Source: a virus. From it: a stretch of 14,972 nt of DNA. Position numbers and translations under genes: made by a program. The notes under the pieces were generated by a model. It saw only the letters and a list, made by a program, of their open reading frames with translations. It was not told the DNA's origin and searched no databases. Shown here one piece after another: positions 7,644-14,387 of the stretch. How positions within the stretch are numbered: the first letter of the stretch is position 1; each line of letters opens with the position of its first letter. The DNA lies in the UHGV virus genome UHGV-1739818. One strand, given 5' to 3'.

Positions 7644-7693
7644 TGTTAGCGCAATGAATGCGTAGAATTAACGGAAAAAGGAGTTTTCCATCA

Positions 7694-8440
7694 ATGTCTA
7701 ATACCCATGTAAAAAACATCAAACTTGGTGCCTGTAAGGTGTCGTTTGGTGGTGTGGATTTGGGTTACACCAAAGGTGGTGTTCAGGTTGAAGTAGCCAC
7801 TGAAACGCTGAAAGTCACTGTCGACCAGCACGGCCAGACAATTATGTCAGAGCTGGTGCAGGGTCGTAACATTACCATTACTGCGCCGCTGGCCGAGTCT
7901 GTGTTGAAAAATATGGTCGATCTGATGCCGGGGTCTACTCTGAACGAAGACGACAACGCTGTGACCATCACTTCCGCACAGGGTGTCAACCTGATCGACG
8001 TAGCCAAAGAGCTGGTTCTGACTCCGCAGGACACTACCGACTACGTTCTGACCATTCCGAAAGCTGCGACCGCAGGTAACTTCACCATGACTTACCAGTC
8101 TGATGATGTTCGTGTGTTCTCTGTTCAGTTCAGCGCATACCCTGATGACGAAGGCGTTCTGGGAAGAATGAGCGGCCCTAAACCGGTAAAAACCGTGTCG
8201 ATCAAACCGGAATCTCCAACTGTAAAAGCAGGGGAGACTGTGCAACTGACAGCCGAAATCACTCCAGCTGATGCCGCAGACAAAACCGGTGTTTGGGAAT
8301 CCGAAGACCAGGAAAAGGCCACGGTAGATCAAACGGGTCTGGTACGTGGTGTGGCGCAGGGTTCTACAAATATCTCCTTCACCAGCAATAGCGGTGGTAA
8401 GAAGGCTACTAAGTCAGTAACGATTAACTCCGCAGGTTAA
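7694..8440 (+). CDS. Major tail (tube) protein with C-terminal Big_2 Ig-like domain
   Basis: ATG 7694 with AAGGAG 10 nt upstream (the track start at 7658 lacks an SD). C-terminal about 90 aa is a Big_2-type domain (…VQLTAEITPADAADKTGVWESEDQEKATVDQTGLVRGVAQGSTNISFT…), as in lambda gpV. Located before the G/GT pair. Confidence 0.7.
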   Translation: MSNTHVKNIKLGACKVSFGGVDLGYTKGGVQVEVATETLKVTVDQHGQTIMSELVQGRNITITAPLAESVLKNMVDLMPGSTLNEDDNAVTITSAQGVNLIDVAKELVLTPQDTTDYVLTIPKAATAGNFTMTYQSDDVRVFSVQFSAYPDDEGVLGRMSGPKPVKTVSIKPESPTVKAGETVQLTAEITPADAADKTGVWESEDQEKATVDQTGLVRGVAQGSTNISFTSNSGGKKATKSVTINSAG

Positions 8441-8453
8441 TCAGTAATTAAGC

Positions 8454-8479
8454 AGAGGCTCAGGATGGGCCTCTCTTTT
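8454..8479 (+). terminator. Candidate weak intrinsic terminator after the major tail gene
   Basis: AGAGGC (8454-8459), 9-nt loop, GCCTCT (8469-8474), then CTTTT. Short U-tract, so possibly partial. Confidence 0.35.
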
Positions 8480-8495
8480 AAAAGGATTTTAACCA

Positions 8496-8813
8496 ATGAC
8501 CAAATTACTCGATCTCGATTCCATTCTGCCTCCGAAGAAAAGCATCAAATTTGGCGGTCAGGAATATCCCATCGTTGAAATGACGGTAGGTCTGTTCGTT
8601 TCCATCAAGCAGATGGAAGGCAAAGATCTCATGAACATGTCTCCTGTTGAGCAAGTGACAGCTTATGCAGATCTGGTTCGTAAGGTTATCCCTTCAGTAC
8701 CTGACGAAGTTCTTGAAAAACTGACTGTTCCGCAACTCCAGCAGATCTTCACCTTCGCTATGGAAGTGATTGATGAAGAAAACGAAAAAGCGGCTGGCGA
8801 AGGGGCAAAGTAA
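8496..8813 (+). CDS. Tail assembly chaperone (lambda gpG-like)
   Basis: 105-aa acidic-C-terminus ORF immediately upstream of the tape measure gene, with AAGGA 9 nt upstream; its 3' end overlaps a -1 frame ORF. Confidence 0.7.
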   Translation: MTKLLDLDSILPPKKSIKFGGQEYPIVEMTVGLFVSIKQMEGKDLMNMSPVEQVTAYADLVRKVIPSVPDEVLEKLTVPQLQQIFTFAMEVIDEENEKAAGEGAK

Positions 8814-9163
8814 TTTCCCGCGATGAATCCGGGACAAGGACCGTCTCAATAGATCTCGGATTCTATTTCAGTCGTGTAGTTGCTCACTACGCCGTGTCGC
8901 CATTAGAGCTACTGAACGTTCCTCTCACGATGTTCTGGATGCTCAGTCGCAATATAGACCGTCTGCGTGCGGAAGAGGATGTCCGCAACTTACAAGTCGC
9001 TCGTGCGTCCCAGGCGGATGGCGAGGCTGTGAAGGCGTTCATGGAGGGTTTGCAACTCAGGATTGGAAGACCAGTCGTAACAGATAAAGTCTACGATCCA
9101 AGCCAGGATAAGGCAGACCCTGACGCCAAAGAGCAACTGATGCAAATATTTGGCAGAGGATGA
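8777..9163 (+). CDS. T-domain reading frame of a G-T tail assembly chaperone fusion, expressed by -1 programmed frameshift from 8496..8813
   Basis: The -1 frame is open from 8777 (after TGA at 8774-8776) to 9163 and overlaps the last 37 nt of the G-like ORF. There is no SD before its first internal start (GTG 8894). Its stop overlaps the tape measure start region. Confidence 0.6.
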   Translation, partial: RKRKSGWRRGKVISRDESGTRTVSIDLGFYFSRVVAHYAVSPLELLNVPLTMFWMLSRNIDRLRAEEDVRNLQVARASQADGEAVKAFMEGLQLRIGRPVVTDKVYDPSQDKADPDAKEQLMQIFGRG

Positions 9164-9170
9164 CAAGGGA

Positions 9171-10856
9171 ATGTCACAAAACGTAGAGTTTATCCTGTCG
9201 CTGGAAGACAAACAGTTTACAGCGTCAATCGATCGTGCGGGGAAACTGCTTACTCGATTTGGTGAGCAGGTAACAAAGCCTGCTCAAAAAATCCAAACCT
9301 TTGAACGCTCTTTGGGTTCGGTCGCCCGTATCATTGGCGTTCTGGAAAGCAAGCTCGATTCTACGGCAGATAAACTACAGGATGTAGCTGCCGGTTTTGA
9401 GCTTGCTTCAGATGCTACGCGTAAAATGCGTGGCAACATCACCAGCCTCAATTCTGGTCTTAAAGCCCTGATTGAGCGCGTCGATACGACAACTTCTTCA
9501 GTAGATAAACTCACCGCGTCATTACGTAAAGTGCAATCAGAGCTAAATGATTTCTCTGATTGGGCGACCTATGCAAGCAAAAGCGCAAGCCGCTTTGGTA
9601 CGGAGGTCAAAGAAGCCTCTGCGTCCGTGAGTGGCATGAATACGCGCCTTAATACCACGACGAAGCGACTCAGTAATTGGGGTGTCACAACGAGTCAGGC
9701 TGCCGAGGGACTGAAAAAGGTTCGTGAGCAGATGGACGAAGTTATCGGACGTCAGCAACTGATTAGCAAGCCGGTACGCGTTCGTACATCTGGAAGTGGC
9801 GATGGTGGTAGCGGGCGGCGTAGCGGCGCTTCTGGCCATAGCGGTAAAAGTAACGAAGGAGGTATGTTCTCTGGCCTTCGTGGCAACATTTTCCTGCTTG
9901 GCGAGATCGGAGATGCAGCCAGAACGGTTACTGACATCATGTTTGGGTGGCAGAAGCCTATTGTTGAAGCTGCGGCCGAAATGGAACGTATGCGGGTGAT
10001 GCTTCGAGGGTTGAATAAGGAGAAGTCCAACCCGGGCCAGGCTGCCGCTGATGATATGAAGTACATCGTAGACATGGCGCAAAATGCGCCGTTCGCGATG
10101 CAGGCGTTAACAGATTCCTTCGTGAAGTTTCGTTCTGCTGGCTTAGATCCAACCGATGGTTCTCTGAAGGCGCTGGTGGACTCCGTTGCTCGTTTTGGTG
10201 GTGATAGTGAGCTGTTGAAACGTGCGGCTGTGGCCGTTCAGCAGATGTCCGGTAAGGGCGTTGTGTCAATGGAAGAGCTACGTCAGCAATTAGGTGAAGC
10301 CGTTCCTAACGCGATGCAGGCAATGGCAGACGCCGCAGGCATCACTATGGGGGAACTGACTAAAGCCGTTGCCAGCGGTACGGTTGAGGCAAAACAGGCG
10401 TTGTCTCTGATGTTTGTTGGTCTGCGTGCGGAGAATGAGAACGCAGCGAAAGACATGATGCAAACCTACACAGGTGCGCTGGCGCAACTTCAGACGTCAT
10501 TCACGTTATTTGCTGATCGGGTTGGTCAGGCCGGATATCTGGATTCTCTATCGAAGGGGATGAAAGAACTGGCTTCAATCATGAATAGCGCCGAAGGGAT
10601 TTCGTTTGCCAATTCTTTAGGCTCGGGGTTAACGACGGCAATCGATGGGTTGCGTCAGCTTGCTCAATGGTTAGCAAAGAACCAAGAGCTGGTAATTAAT
10701 CTCGGTAAGGTCGTGGCCGCGATGGTTGCGTTCAAACTGATGCGAGCAGGGATCATGGGGGTAGTTGGCGCAGGCAGCCAGATGGTTAGCACCTTTGCCA
10801 CGATGGCGACCGCCATACAGACTCCATTTAACCTCGGCGCTACAGCAGTAAGATGA
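9171..10856 (+). CDS. Tail tape measure protein, N-terminal/major segment
   Basis: ATG 9171 with GAGGA 10 nt upstream (the track start at 9150 is a TTG without SD). Coiled-coil N-terminus, Gly/Ser-rich linker, and a region typical of tape-measure core domains (…NAPFAMQALTDSFVKFRSAGLDPTDG…); hydrophobic C-terminal segment. Confidence 0.8.
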   Translation: MSQNVEFILSLEDKQFTASIDRAGKLLTRFGEQVTKPAQKIQTFERSLGSVARIIGVLESKLDSTADKLQDVAAGFELASDATRKMRGNITSLNSGLKALIERVDTTTSSVDKLTASLRKVQSELNDFSDWATYASKSASRFGTEVKEASASVSGMNTRLNTTTKRLSNWGVTTSQAAEGLKKVREQMDEVIGRQQLISKPVRVRTSGSGDGGSGRRSGASGHSGKSNEGGMFSGLRGNIFLLGEIGDAARTVTDIMFGWQKPIVEAAAEMERMRVMLRGLNKEKSNPGQAAADDMKYIVDMAQNAPFAMQALTDSFVKFRSAGLDPTDGSLKALVDSVARFGGDSELLKRAAVAVQQMSGKGVVSMEELRQQLGEAVPNAMQAMADAAGITMGELTKAVASGTVEAKQALSLMFVGLRAENENAAKDMMQTYTGALAQLQTSFTLFADRVGQAGYLDSLSKGMKELASIMNSAEGISFANSLGSGLTTAIDGLRQLAQWLAKNQELVINLGKVVAAMVAFKLMRAGIMGVVGAGSQMVSTFATMATAIQTPFNLGATAVR

Positions 10857-11860
10857 GCTTCTCCAGCCTATCTCAGTCCATTTTGAAAGATATCACCAAT
10901 ATGGTCGTGAAGTCGCAAATCACGCTGCCTCTAATGAACATGTTGGGGATGGGAACCACCGCAGCTGGTAGTTCACAGAGTGGCAATTTGCTCACTGGAG
11001 TTGCTTCCGCCGTTGCCAATCAAGGGGTACGAATGGGCAACACTGTTAACGGCGACAAGTCGGTGGGAGAAGCCACGAAGGAGACGTCCAGTTCGGTAAC
11101 TGGATTGGGGCAAACAACACAGCAGACCACCAGCGCAATTGGCACTGCAACAAATGCGATTGGTAGCTGGGTATCAGGGCTATTTGATAGCACCGAAGCC
11201 AAAGATGCTGAAACAAAAGCAGTGAAGGACTCCATCTTCTCGATGCAGAACCTCAGCTCTGTTACCGGCGCTCTGTCTGCCGCGTTTGCAATGCTTGGAG
11301 CTAATGCTTCCGGCTCTGGTAATAAGTGGTTGAATTTCGGCGCGACAGTTGCATCTGGTTTGGTTTCAGTATGGGCTGGTGGTGGATTCGATGGATTGAT
11401 GTCCGGTTCTTCTGGCTCAACTTCCGGGTTCAACAATCTGACCAGTTCTGCTGCCGATGGCACGAATGGTATTCCTGCAATTCCGAAGTTTGCAAATGGT
11501 GGCATATTCGGAAAAGACGGCGTGATCCCGCTCCGGGCATACCAGAAAGGCGGTATCGCCAACTCACCTCAATTGGCGTTGTTTGGGGAAGGCGATATGA
11601 ATGAGGCGTATGTTCCATTGCCTGATGGTCGAACAATCCCTGTAACGCTCAGTACCGATGGTATGAGTGGAGGAGGAAATGTTCTTTCTCCGGTATCAAT
11701 TGAGATCAACGTCCATAGTGACGGTAGCACAACTGAATCCGGCGATACAGAAAGCATATGGAACAATGCCGCTCAACGGATGAAAGCAATCGCGCTTGAG
11801 ACTATCGCTCAAGAGAAACGCCCTGGCGGATCACTCAACCCAAACACTCAACGTAACTAA
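10853..11860 (+). CDS. Tape measure protein, C-terminal segment, encoded as a separate ORF in the -1 frame
   Basis: Starts at ATG 10853 overlapping the upstream stop (ATGA). Gly/Ser/Thr-rich with a FANGGIFGKDGVIPL…GEGDMNEAYVPLPDGRTIPV block resembling conserved tape-measure C-terminal motifs. Confidence 0.65.
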   Translation: MSFSSLSQSILKDITNMVVKSQITLPLMNMLGMGTTAAGSSQSGNLLTGVASAVANQGVRMGNTVNGDKSVGEATKETSSSVTGLGQTTQQTTSAIGTATNAIGSWVSGLFDSTEAKDAETKAVKDSIFSMQNLSSVTGALSAAFAMLGANASGSGNKWLNFGATVASGLVSVWAGGGFDGLMSGSSGSTSGFNNLTSSAADGTNGIPAIPKFANGGIFGKDGVIPLRAYQKGGIANSPQLALFGEGDMNEAYVPLPDGRTIPVTLSTDGMSGGGNVLSPVSIEINVHSDGSTTESGDTESIWNNAAQRMKAIALETIAQEKRPGGSLNPNTQRN

Positions 11861-12238: not shown

Positions 12239-12275
12239 GTATCTGGATAAGTAAGTACTAATTTACTATCATTGT

Positions 12276-12298
12276 GGCGCTGACAGGATGTTAGCGCC
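12276..12298 (+). other. Hairpin in the M-L intergenic spacer
   Basis: GGCGCT (12276-12281), 11-nt loop, AGCGCC (12293-12298), followed by TACTTATTTC. Confidence 0.3.
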
Positions 12299-12320
12299 TA
12301 CTTATTTCAAGGATGAAACA

Positions 12321-13019
12321 ATGGGAATTAAAGCTGATATTCAGAGCTTATCTCCCTCTGCACTCATTGAGTTGTTCGTACTGGATATGTCGAACACAAC
12401 TTCAGGGGGGAAGCTATTCTTCCACGCCGGAACAAACGAACTGATGCAACCGGTCGTCTGGCAAGGAGTGACATACGAGCCGTGGCCAATCAAAGCATCA
12501 GGCTTTGACAAAACTGGCCAGGGAACGTTGCCACGTCCAAAAATTCAGGTATCGAACTTTGCCGGAACTGTCTCTGCGGAAGTTCAGGCAAACGACGATC
12601 TTGTTGGCTGCCGCATTATTCGCAAGATGACGCTGGCTCGCTTCCTCGATGCCGTTAATTTTAAAGACGGCAACCCAACAGCAGATCCAAACCAACATTT
12701 CCCGGATGAAATGTGGTTTATCGAACAGAAAACTCTCGAAACTCATCAGGTTGTCGAGTTTGAATTGTCCAGTGTGTTCGATTTGATGGGGGTGCAACTG
12801 CCGTATCGTCAGATCATTAAAAACACCTGCCCGTGGAAATACCGAGGGCCAGAATGCGGCTATACCGGTCCATATTTCGACAAAAATAACCAGCAGACGT
12901 CTATGTCTGGTGCTGATTACTGCACAAAACGTTATGACGCCTGTAATGCGCGTCGGAATTATTTTGCCAACGGAGTGATCCATTTTGGCGGGTTTATTGG
13001 AGCTACGCGATATGGGTAA
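12321..13019 (+). CDS. Minor tail protein, lambda gpL homologue (tail tip, Fe-S cysteine motif)
   Basis: ATG 12321 with AAGGA 7 nt upstream (the track start at 12288 adds 11 poorly supported residues). Blocks VVWQGVTYEPWPIKASGFDKTGQGTLPRPKIQVSNF, RFLDAVNF.DGNP.ADPNQ and CPWKYRGPECGYTGP…C…C match lambda gpL as I recall it. Confidence 0.85.
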   Translation: MGIKADIQSLSPSALIELFVLDMSNTTSGGKLFFHAGTNELMQPVVWQGVTYEPWPIKASGFDKTGQGTLPRPKIQVSNFAGTVSAEVQANDDLVGCRIIRKMTLARFLDAVNFKDGNPTADPNQHFPDEMWFIEQKTLETHQVVEFELSSVFDLMGVQLPYRQIIKNTCPWKYRGPECGYTGPYFDKNNQQTSMSGADYCTKRYDACNARRNYFANGVIHFGGFIGATRYG

Positions 13020-13809
13020 TAAAGCAATCCCTGAGCTTGGCTCTGATGTTATGCAGCAAATCTATCTCTGCGCCATAAATCGCTACCCTAATGAAGCGTG
13101 TGGCTTTCTGGTGAGAACTAATGGCGACAAATATCGCTTTATGGAAGCGCGAAATGTTTCGGAGAACCCGCAGAACACTTTTGTAATGCACGTTGACGAC
13201 ATTATGGCGGCGGAGGATGCAGGTGACGTAATCGCAATCTGGCATTCACATACTGATGAATCAGCAGAAGCATCTGATGCCGATCGTGCAGGCTGTGAAG
13301 CGACGGAAGTTCCGTGGATGATTCTGGCTATTCGCAAGAATGTTGAGGGAGATGCCCCTTTCCATTTTAGCGAGATGAATGTGATCACACCTGATGGTTT
13401 CGAAATGCCATACCTGGGTAGACCGTATGTATTTGGCGTATTCGATTGCTGGATGTTGTGTCGGGACTATTTGAAGCGTGAGTTTAACGTCGAGCTTAAC
13501 CCGAACGCACACCTGCATATTCCATCGTGGTACACCGGCGATAACGACATTCTCGACCAGAACTACCGAAACGAGGGATTGGTACGGCTTGCACCTGGAA
13601 CAGAGCCTCAACGTGGGGACGTCTTCTTTATTCAATACGGAAAAATGCCTGACCACTGTGCGGTTTATATCGGCGATGGAATGATTCTTCATCACCAGAT
13701 CGACCGCCTTAGTTGTCGTGCTTATTACGGCGGGATGTATCAGAAACATACGACGCATCACTTGCGTCACAGAGACTTGCTCAAGGGAGATGAGACGTGT
13801 CTGAGTTAG
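13012..13809 (+). CDS. Tail assembly protein, lambda gpK homologue (MPN/JAMM plus NlpC/P60 domains)
   Basis: ATG 13012 overlaps the gpL-like stop, GGAG 9 nt upstream. N-terminal YPNEACGFLV and an intact JAMM motif HSHTDESAEASDAD (H-x-H-x7-S-x2-D, 13243-13284); C-terminal FDCWM Cys plus downstream His typical of NlpC/P60. Confidence 0.85.
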   Translation: MGNKAIPELGSDVMQQIYLCAINRYPNEACGFLVRTNGDKYRFMEARNVSENPQNTFVMHVDDIMAAEDAGDVIAIWHSHTDESAEASDADRAGCEATEVPWMILAIRKNVEGDAPFHFSEMNVITPDGFEMPYLGRPYVFGVFDCWMLCRDYLKREFNVELNPNAHLHIPSWYTGDNDILDQNYRNEGLVRLAPGTEPQRGDVFFIQYGKMPDHCAVYIGDGMILHHQIDRLSCRAYYGGMYQKHTTHHLRHRDLLKGDETCLS

Positions 13810-14387
13810 TTCATGTGCAGCTTGGCGGCCCTATGGCCAAACATTTTGGCCGCCACTGGCATCTAAAGGTGCGTAATACAAAACAGGCTCTGGATTTAAT
13901 TGAGGCCAACAAGCCTGGGTTTAAAGCATGGATGAAGCGCAATATCAAAACCTATGACAGATACCACATCCAGATCACCAATAAACAGGGCCACAAGTGG
14001 TCTGTGGACGAGAGTGAATATCAGATGATGGGGCAGTCTGACAATATTGCAAAAATCCGCATTACCCCTGTTCCGCGAGGAAGTGGTGGATCTGCTTTTG
14101 GATGGTTTCAGACGGTTGTTGGAGCAGTATTAATGGTTGCCTCGATATGGGTGCCCGCTCTTGCGCCTCTCGGTTTGTCACTGATGATGGGCGGTATAGC
14201 GCAAATCATATCTCCGCAAGCCACTAACGAAAGTGTGAGGCAGGCGGATAACTCGAACTCTTATTACTTTGATGGACCTCAAAACACAACAAACCAGGGG
14301 AACCCTGTACAGCTTATCTATGGCGAGGAAATTTTAGTTGGCTCACAGGTCGTGAGTTCTTCTATCACCATCGACCAGCTTATGTAA
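13797..14387 (+). CDS. Tail assembly protein, lambda gpI homologue
   Basis: GTG start overlapping the gpK-like stop, GGGAG upstream. Central hydrophobic segment plus C-terminal …NSYYFDGPQNTTNQGNPVQLIYGEEILVGSQVVSSSITIDQ resemble lambda gpI; standard position. Confidence 0.8.
   Translation: MSELVHVQLGGPMAKHFGRHWHLKVRNTKQALDLIEANKPGFKAWMKRNIKTYDRYHIQITNKQGHKWSVDESEYQMMGQSDNIAKIRITPVPRGSGGSAFGWFQTVVGAVLMVASIWVPALAPLGLSLMMGGIAQIISPQATNESVRQADNSNSYYFDGPQNTTNQGNPVQLIYGEEILVGSQVVSSSITIDQLM

Follow-up and report, generated by a model that had tools for sequence, protein, structure and literature searches.

A predicted tetramer-plus-stop −1 frameshift signal in the putative tail assembly chaperone genes of SSU5-type phage-plasmids

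Textbook accounts of long-tailed phages include the G/GT frameshift. The closest known systems to the locus described here include the HK97 tail assembly chaperone (PDB 2ob9), Bacillus subtilis YqbN (3klu) and RBSTP2171 (3fgx). Relevant precedents for the slip signal come from work on Z_ZZN tetramers. A_AAG is by far the most shift-prone of these tetramers in Escherichia coli and is the predominant one among tetramer-using IS1 and IS3 elements; alone it shifts barely above background, and with a pseudoknot stimulator it reaches up to 5.6% (PMC4066793). Natural examples include B. subtilis cdd (A_CGA_AAG) and IS1222 (G_CGA_AAG), and "shifty stops" are an established idea (PMC5009743). We describe here an SSU5-type locus that, from comparative sequence evidence, is probably an unannotated case of the well-known G/GT strategy with a less common slip signal.

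The locus lies within UHGV virus genome UHGV-1739818, of which we analysed a stretch of 14,972 nucleotides (hereafter the window). Positions 8300-9300 share 99.5-100% identity with Escherichia phage Cyrano (pLF82) and with "phage CMS-2020a", and 88% identity with Salmonella phage SSU5. A 668-nt segment spanning G and T matches 785 PLSDB plasmid records, with at least 99% identity in 134 of them, and these matches come from Klebsiella, Escherichia, Enterobacter, Yersinia, Salmonella, Citrobacter and Cronobacter. The locus is present in at least 785 plasmid and at least 12 phage records overall. Because of the identities to Cyrano and SSU5 and the PLSDB plasmid matches, the window element is identified as an SSU5/pLF82/pMT1-type siphovirus phage-plasmid.

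The gene order in the window is a major tail protein with a Big_2 domain, G, T and the tape measure protein, and relatives keep the same order (Table 1). The open reading frame of the major tail protein begins at 7658 (260 aa), whereas public records start it 36 nt later, at 7694 (248 aa). The later, annotated start is the more likely one, given that residue 13 is the first to be covered by the PHROG match. Within this gene, positions 7819-8236 are densely substituted relative to phage Cyrano and hold about 70 of the 97 differences found in 4.2 kb, while the flanks are nearly identical. This cluster looks like a recombination (mosaic) patch.

Table 1. Features of the window, and the ends of G in more distant loci
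Feature	Position	Strand	Details
Major tail (tube) protein gene, C-terminal Ig-like domain	7658..8440	+	phrog_1280, E 8e-160; several "major tail protein" PHROGs; Pfam Big_2, E 7.8e-26
G-like gene, zero frame; predicted tail assembly chaperone, major product	8496..8813	+	105 aa; ATG 8496, stop TAA 8811-8813
Upstream part of the −1 open frame; probably untranslated in the −1 frame	8777..8809	+	closed by TGA (GGTGAAG) in several relatives
GAAAAAG, alternative slip candidate, rejected as conserved site	8784..8790	+	−1-frame TGA downstream in relatives
Proposed shift site A_AAG, then stop UAA	8807..8813	+	A_AAG 8807-8810; last sense codon AAG 8808-8810; UAA 8811-8813
T segment, −1 frame	8810..9163	+	would be translated only as a C-terminal extension to G; 117 codons from GTA 8810; stop TGA 9161-9163
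Alternative small hairpin (UCCCG.GA / UC.CGGGA)	8816..8834	+	5 nt past AAG, usual spacing; mutually exclusive with inner long stem
Candidate downstream stem-loop, 10 bp, 19-nt loop	8825..8863	+	8825-8834 paired with 8854-8863; begins 14 nt past AAG
Tape measure protein gene, truncated in the window	9171..10856	+	phrog_1292, tail length tape measure protein; Pfam TMP_3, E 1.2e-28
G end, L102 (Oxalobacter MAG)			A_AAA_AAG; canonical heptamer
G end, L108			A_AAA_AAG; canonical heptamer
G end, L110			A_AAA_AAG; canonical heptamer
G end, L103			G_GGA_AAA; canonical heptamer
G end, L107			G_GGA_AAC; canonical heptamer
G end, L105			GCA AAG TAR; like the window
G end, L109			GCA AAG TAR; like the window
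G end, L106	1801-1821		CAG GGG AAG TAA; 13-nt −1 overlap

The −1 frame relative to G is closed by a TGA at 8774-8776 and then stays open from 8777 to the TGA at 9161-9163. This run of 128 codons has a chance probability of ~0.0009 under the base composition of the window and of 0.002 under equal base frequencies. An earlier sequence-only reading of this DNA had drawn the −1 frame from 8777 to 9163, with a 37-nt overlap with the G-like ORF, and our recomputation returned the same coordinates. Over the overlap the zero-frame codons read GAA GAA AAC GAA AAA GCG GCT GGC GAA GGG GCA AAG TAA. No X_XXY_YYZ heptamer is present in the zero frame within 8777-8813, nor in SSU5-clade relatives, and the codons agree with the earlier statement that neither of two proposed slip candidates is a canonical heptamer.

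Start-type codons appear late in the T frame, the first being GTG 8894, followed by ATG 8930 and ATG 8939. Inspection of the window sequence found no AGGAG-like or Shine-Dalgarno sequence ahead of any of the three, in line with the previous remark that none precedes the first internal T start. G matches phrog_893 and T matches phrog_1131, both of which are labelled "unknown function". The phrog_1131 match begins only at residue 45 of the open T frame, probably because public records begin the T gene late. The predicted GT fusion consists of G(1-105) plus 117 residues, for a total of 222 aa (…EGAK-VISRDESG…).

Our reading of the locus, to which we assign a probability of about 0.72, is that 8496-8813 and 8810-9163 are the G and T of a lambda-type chaperone pair and that a −1 slip at A_AAG before the stop yields the 222-aa fusion. 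In the mechanism that we infer, most ribosomes would terminate at UAA 8811-8813 to give G, whereas a minority would slip back by one nucleotide at A_AAG (8807-8810), with tRNA-Lys leaving AAG and re-pairing with AAA (8807-8809). The slip could happen with the stop codon occupying the A site, or one step earlier, during translocation, with the same product either way. Both the occurrence of the slip and its efficiency are predictions, as are the tRNA and the ribosomal site assigned to it. Decoding would resume at GUA 8810 (Val, Ile, Ser, Arg…), and the last codon would end at 9160, followed by the stop UGA 9161-9163, giving the G-T fusion …EGAK-VISRDESGTRTVSIDLGFYF…. The stop codon after the slip codon would supply a pause, possibly together with a conserved downstream stem-loop. 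If the pair works as gpG/gpGT does in lambda, G would form a coat on the tape measure protein, and the tail tube protein would be brought in by the T part.

We compared the window with 102 related loci (11 annotated, 80 from IMG/VR and 11 from GTDB genomes) and with seven loci that carry more distant G homologues. The G stop is crossed by an open −1 frame in 102/102 related and 7/7 more distant loci. The G/T overlap, which spans 37 nt in the window, ranges from 13 to 109 nt in relatives. The sequence GGTGAAG gives rise to a −1-frame TGA in SSU5, Yersinia pestis pMT1, Salmonella AnCo3, Cronobacter, Klebsiella N4b, Morganella and Xenorhabdus hominickii, where the overlap is reduced to 13 nt (AGN NGC AAA GTA A). 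The shift in these relatives must thus fall within the last four sense codons of G, GAA GNN G[CT]A AAG.

A different account of the locus holds that T is an independent gene whose translation begins at GTG 8894, ATG 8930 or ATG 8939, internal starts of its own, with the overlap being incidental. This is how the GenBank, RefSeq and PLSDB records that we examined present it: in SSU5, Cyrano, PhiR41_1, a Klebsiella phage and seven plasmids, G and T are annotated as two separate, independent "hypothetical proteins". ATG 8939 is, moreover, kept in most relatives. The annotators nonetheless differ on where T begins, and three starts are found in the records examined (L001-L011), corresponding to genes of 270, 234 or 225-228 nt. 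The lack of an SD-like sequence ahead of any candidate start likewise weighs against a separate gene.

Constraint on the part of T that precedes these starts also bears on this account. We aligned the codons of 48 distinct T sequences and looked at the stretch of 42 codons that separates the G stop from ATG 8939, the one ATG that is widely conserved. Here variable sites number 28, 16 and 39 at codon positions 1, 2 and 3, and pairwise differences number 7867, 3930 and 15110. The remainder of T (46, 30 and 71 variable sites) has the same third > first > second pattern. The T frame is stop-free in every sequence aligned, with stops in the other two frames, and the indels in the pre-ATG part (in Cronobacter and Klebsiella) are all multiples of three. 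In most lineages the peptide (T)VSID[LF]GFYF[SC]RV comes before all of the candidate starts, and it is kept down to 47-54% overall identity.

By contrast with this conserved protein sequence, no start codon is conserved in the T frame. The position of its first ATG, GTG or TTG varies from codon 9 to codon 44, and ATG 8939 (MLSRN…) is kept in most but not all relatives, Leu (FWL) replacing Met in Xenorhabdus. The roughly 43 codons upstream of the ATG are stop-free and protein-conserved, with changes dominated by third positions. Conservation of this start-less part of T cannot be explained by independent initiation, and translation must enter the frame from upstream. We therefore regard a separately initiated T as improbable, though as the least improbable of the accounts that compete with the G/GT reading.

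Alignment of the overlap among relatives, which the sequence-only reading had put forward as a check, finds the overlap conserved and A_AAG plus stop emerging as the shared slip motif. A_AAG_TAR is present in 102/102 related loci, whose 33-nt tails are of 19 distinct kinds. In 19/19 tails the base ahead of AAG is A, even where the codon switches from GCA to GTA, while the third positions of codons −3, −5, −6 and −7 vary among three to four bases. This base is the last of an Ala or Val codon and, with a shift at AAG, would be free in both frames, yet it is always A, which is the pattern of a Z_ZZN slip site. GCA_AAG provides such a motif in the form of A_AAG and allows cognate −1 re-pairing. 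Within the 13-nt overlap of the TGA-bearing relatives, A_AAG plus stop is the only slip-prone motif. These alignments support A_AAG plus stop, at 8807-8813, as the probable slip site of the SSU5 clade.

Two slip candidates had been named earlier, and they fared differently. CAAAG-TAA stands, in that it holds the sole invariant slip-prone motif, whereas GAAAAAG falls because of the TGA downstream of it in relatives. We rejected GAAAAAG as the conserved site since in SSU5, pMT1, Cronobacter and others a slip there would terminate within a few codons. For the window itself, a shift mainly at GAA_AAA_G, with tRNA-Lys on A_AAA and the linker …ENEK-SGWRRGKVISR…, would be productive, since both the window and Klebsiella-type relatives have a −1 frame that is open from 8777 onward. 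A_AAA is a weakly shift-prone tetramer, but A_AA.A is the lowest of the six active tetramers (PMC4066793). A TGA separates the site from T in SSU5, pMT1, Cronobacter, Morganella, Xenorhabdus and others; furthermore, the codon that follows, GCG, is a sense codon rather than a stop, and we found no structure at the customary spacing. We consider GAA_AAA_G very unlikely to be the main site in the window, where a minor slip on A_AAA (8786-8789) is possible.

Routes to T expression other than a ribosomal slip were also weighed. Transcriptional slippage, or some other non-ribosomal route to the fusion, would have to operate on A runs of just 3 and 5 nt, lengths at which the polymerase does not slip efficiently. 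Reinitiation after termination at the G stop would be favoured by the overlap of the stop with the T frame (GUAAU) and by the codon after GUA, which in many relatives is AUU or AUA, both rare near-cognate starts. We rejected reinitiation at a near-cognate codon past the stop because this codon is not conserved, being ATT or ATA, GTT in several relatives and ATC in the distant locus L103. Taken together, these routes have only a slight chance of accounting for T, smaller still than that of the GAA_AAA_G site.

More distant homologues place the putative A_AAG shift in an evolutionary setting. A profile search of 1.8 billion representatives recovered 426 relatives of G, and phrog_893 is matched by 76/76 sampled G relatives as well as by the window protein. 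The distant loci again contain a T homologue in the −1 frame after G. Metagenomic phage members of phrog_893 and phrog_1131 (L102, L103, L107, L108 and L110) carry homologous G and T in the same gene order as the window, with the T peptide SIDFGFYF soon after the G stop. These five loci have canonical heptamers one to four codons before the stop, whereas the window has A_AAG at the last codon. One further locus, L106, has neither a canonical heptamer nor A_AAG at the end of its G and may use another non-canonical site, conceivably G_GGG.

Canonical slippery heptamers at the homologous position speak strongly, if indirectly, for −1 frameshifting in the family, and they count against T as a separate gene. 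The comparison further suggests that the SSU5 clade has a reduced, tetramer-type site. The sequence-only reading had interpreted the locus as a G/GT-type −1 frameshift, an interpretation that now draws support from synteny, the universal overlap, the constraint on a start-less T and the heptamers of distant homologues.

We also searched the region for RNA structure and other signals that could stimulate a shift. The longer of two candidate stem-loops is paired in 95.9% of cells over 22 distinct sequences, as against at most 65.5% once its 3′ partner is moved along. Three pairs, 8828:8860, 8833:8855 and 8834:8854, have compensatory changes, and the first of them is UA in 17 sequences, GC in 3, AU in 1 and UG in 1. 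This hairpin is the minimum free energy structure in 8 of 9 lineage representatives, and in 9/9 it is more stable than synonymous-codon resamples (z −0.5 to −3.3); single-sequence folding z-scores against dinucleotide shuffles were not significant. Its distance of 14 nt from the slip codon exceeds that of known stimulators. We treat the long hairpin as a conserved structure and a candidate stimulator.

The smaller hairpin has a folding energy of −8 kcal/mol (z −1.28) and is paired in 87.7% of cells. It exhibits essentially no covariation, with one cell changed on both sides, and its CCG/CGG core is invariant but encodes conserved Arg and Gly. An H-type pseudoknot combining 8816-8820/8830-8834 with 8825-8829/8859-8863 was judged less likely, as the covarying pairs 8833:8855 and 8834:8854 speak for the simple long hairpin. 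No Rfam match was found in 8600-9100. Two upstream SD-like stimulators were likewise set aside: GGTGA, 7 nt before AAG, is common in relatives but reads GGCGA in the window, and AAGGGG (8800-8805) is not conserved, being GAAGAA or GAAGAG elsewhere. The adjacent stop codon is a possible pause signal. A more specific proposal is that the SSU5-type group (Y. pestis pMT1-like, Salmonella, Klebsiella, Enterobacter and E. coli pLF82-like) uses a bare A_AAG at the last sense codon, with the stop codon acting as the pause (a −1 "shifty stop") and with aid from the covarying stem-loop at an unusually long distance of 14 nt, in place of the heptamers kept in distant homologues; we put this forward tentatively and hold it to be considerably less probable than the G/GT reading itself.

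The predicted chaperone function of G was examined through profiles and structure models. Neither G nor T has a direct match in Pfam, and Phage_TAC_7 is weakly matched by just 3 of 77 distant G relatives. A profile search of PDB sequences with G returned nothing relevant. An AlphaFold model of G built on 77 sequences (pLDDT 85.6) has a beta-hairpin followed by helices, and its best BFVD match is a protein named "Tail assembly chaperone" (E 5.6e-5, TM 0.69). About ten further proteins named tail assembly chaperone are among the top 50 BFVD matches. A putative role for G as a tail assembly chaperone fits by position, size, fold trend and frameshift arrangement, with modest support from the modelled fold.

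The C-terminal tail of G is acidic and almost invariant in the SSU5 clade (residues 94-105, 8775-8810; EENE[KA]A[AS]G[ED]x[AV]K), with E94, E95, N96, E97, G101 and K105 invariant. The last residues of G are of low confidence in the predicted structure. The tail could be a motif for binding, or it could be held constant by its link to the shift site.

The tape measure gene of the window is broken. Relative to Cyrano, about 1888 nt (~1.9 kb, Cyrano ~12246-14133) are absent, a length that is not a multiple of three. The reading frame from ATG 9171 ends at a stop at 10854-10856 and encodes 561 aa, as compared with a 4578-nt gene in Cyrano, and the C-terminal part resumes out of frame at 10853-11860. 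The deletion is seen relative to all relatives, and its junction (10850-10856) is contiguous in 0/201 matching PLSDB plasmids. The window may thus represent a defective element, possibly one unable to build tails, or a misassembly. A separate case is provided by Klebsiella pneumoniae pCRKP18622-1 (L005, 1358-1861), in which an IS1B transposase gene lies about 80 nt past the T stop, at the tape measure position of other relatives. No tape measure gene is annotated in the stretch of L005 that we examined, and its tail module is possibly disrupted.

Disruption of the tape measure gene would be compatible with T being a decaying, unexpressed remnant and with a chaperone function that needs G alone. 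The T frame is, however, open and under purifying selection from E. coli relatives to Xenorhabdus and metagenomic phages, and many plasmids that appear intact carry a G-T region 100% identical to that of the window. We accordingly give the remnant account as little weight as slippage by the polymerase or reinitiation, and favour G and T as parts of a G/GT pair.

The presence of a frameshift at this position is expected rather than surprising, and the value of its assignment is practical. The literature and public annotation that we searched yielded no description of a tail-chaperone frameshift in SSU5-like elements. Annotation as one G gene plus a 222-aa frameshift product would correct the records of a widespread enterobacterial phage-plasmid group. 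The locus would also extend the known range of shift signals by a −1 site that combines a tetramer with a stop, a kind that heptamer-based prediction tools may miss. One protein family that spans canonical heptamers and A_AAG plus stop would, in addition, offer an evolutionary series.

A comparison with lambda gpG/gpGT, on the basis of the work that PMC5009743 sums up (Levin 1993; Xu, Hendrix and Duda 2004, 2013, 2014), brings out both parallels and differences. Both pairs are flanked by the gene for the major tail protein and the gene for the tape measure protein, and in both the second ORF is in the −1 frame, is without its own start and overlaps the end of the first ORF, with the shift near the G stop. 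The output, predicted from sequence in the present case, is likewise an abundant short product and a rare fusion. The lambda slip site is the canonical heptamer G_GGA_AAG, whereas the window appears to use the tetramer A_AAG at the last sense codon before the stop. The window G, at 105 aa, is smaller than lambda G, and we detected no sequence similarity of the window protein to lambda G or T, nor to a Pfam Phage_TAC family.

The tetramer sites of IS1222, cdd, IS1 and IS3 provide the second point of comparison (PMC5009743, PMC4066793). The window offers no clear counterpart to the stimulators known at those sites, namely an SD-like sequence upstream, or a downstream hairpin or pseudoknot at a distance of 5-8 nt. 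The IS sites serve in a transposase context, whereas the window site belongs to a putative phage tail chaperone and places the slip codon immediately before the zero-frame stop. In both settings A_AAG follows a codon that is unable to re-pair in the −1 frame, this codon being CGA there and GCA or GTA here. The proposed tRNA-Lys slip from AAG to AAA is shared with these Z_ZZN tetramer sites, as is an enterobacterial host range, in which A_AAG is the shiftiest tetramer.
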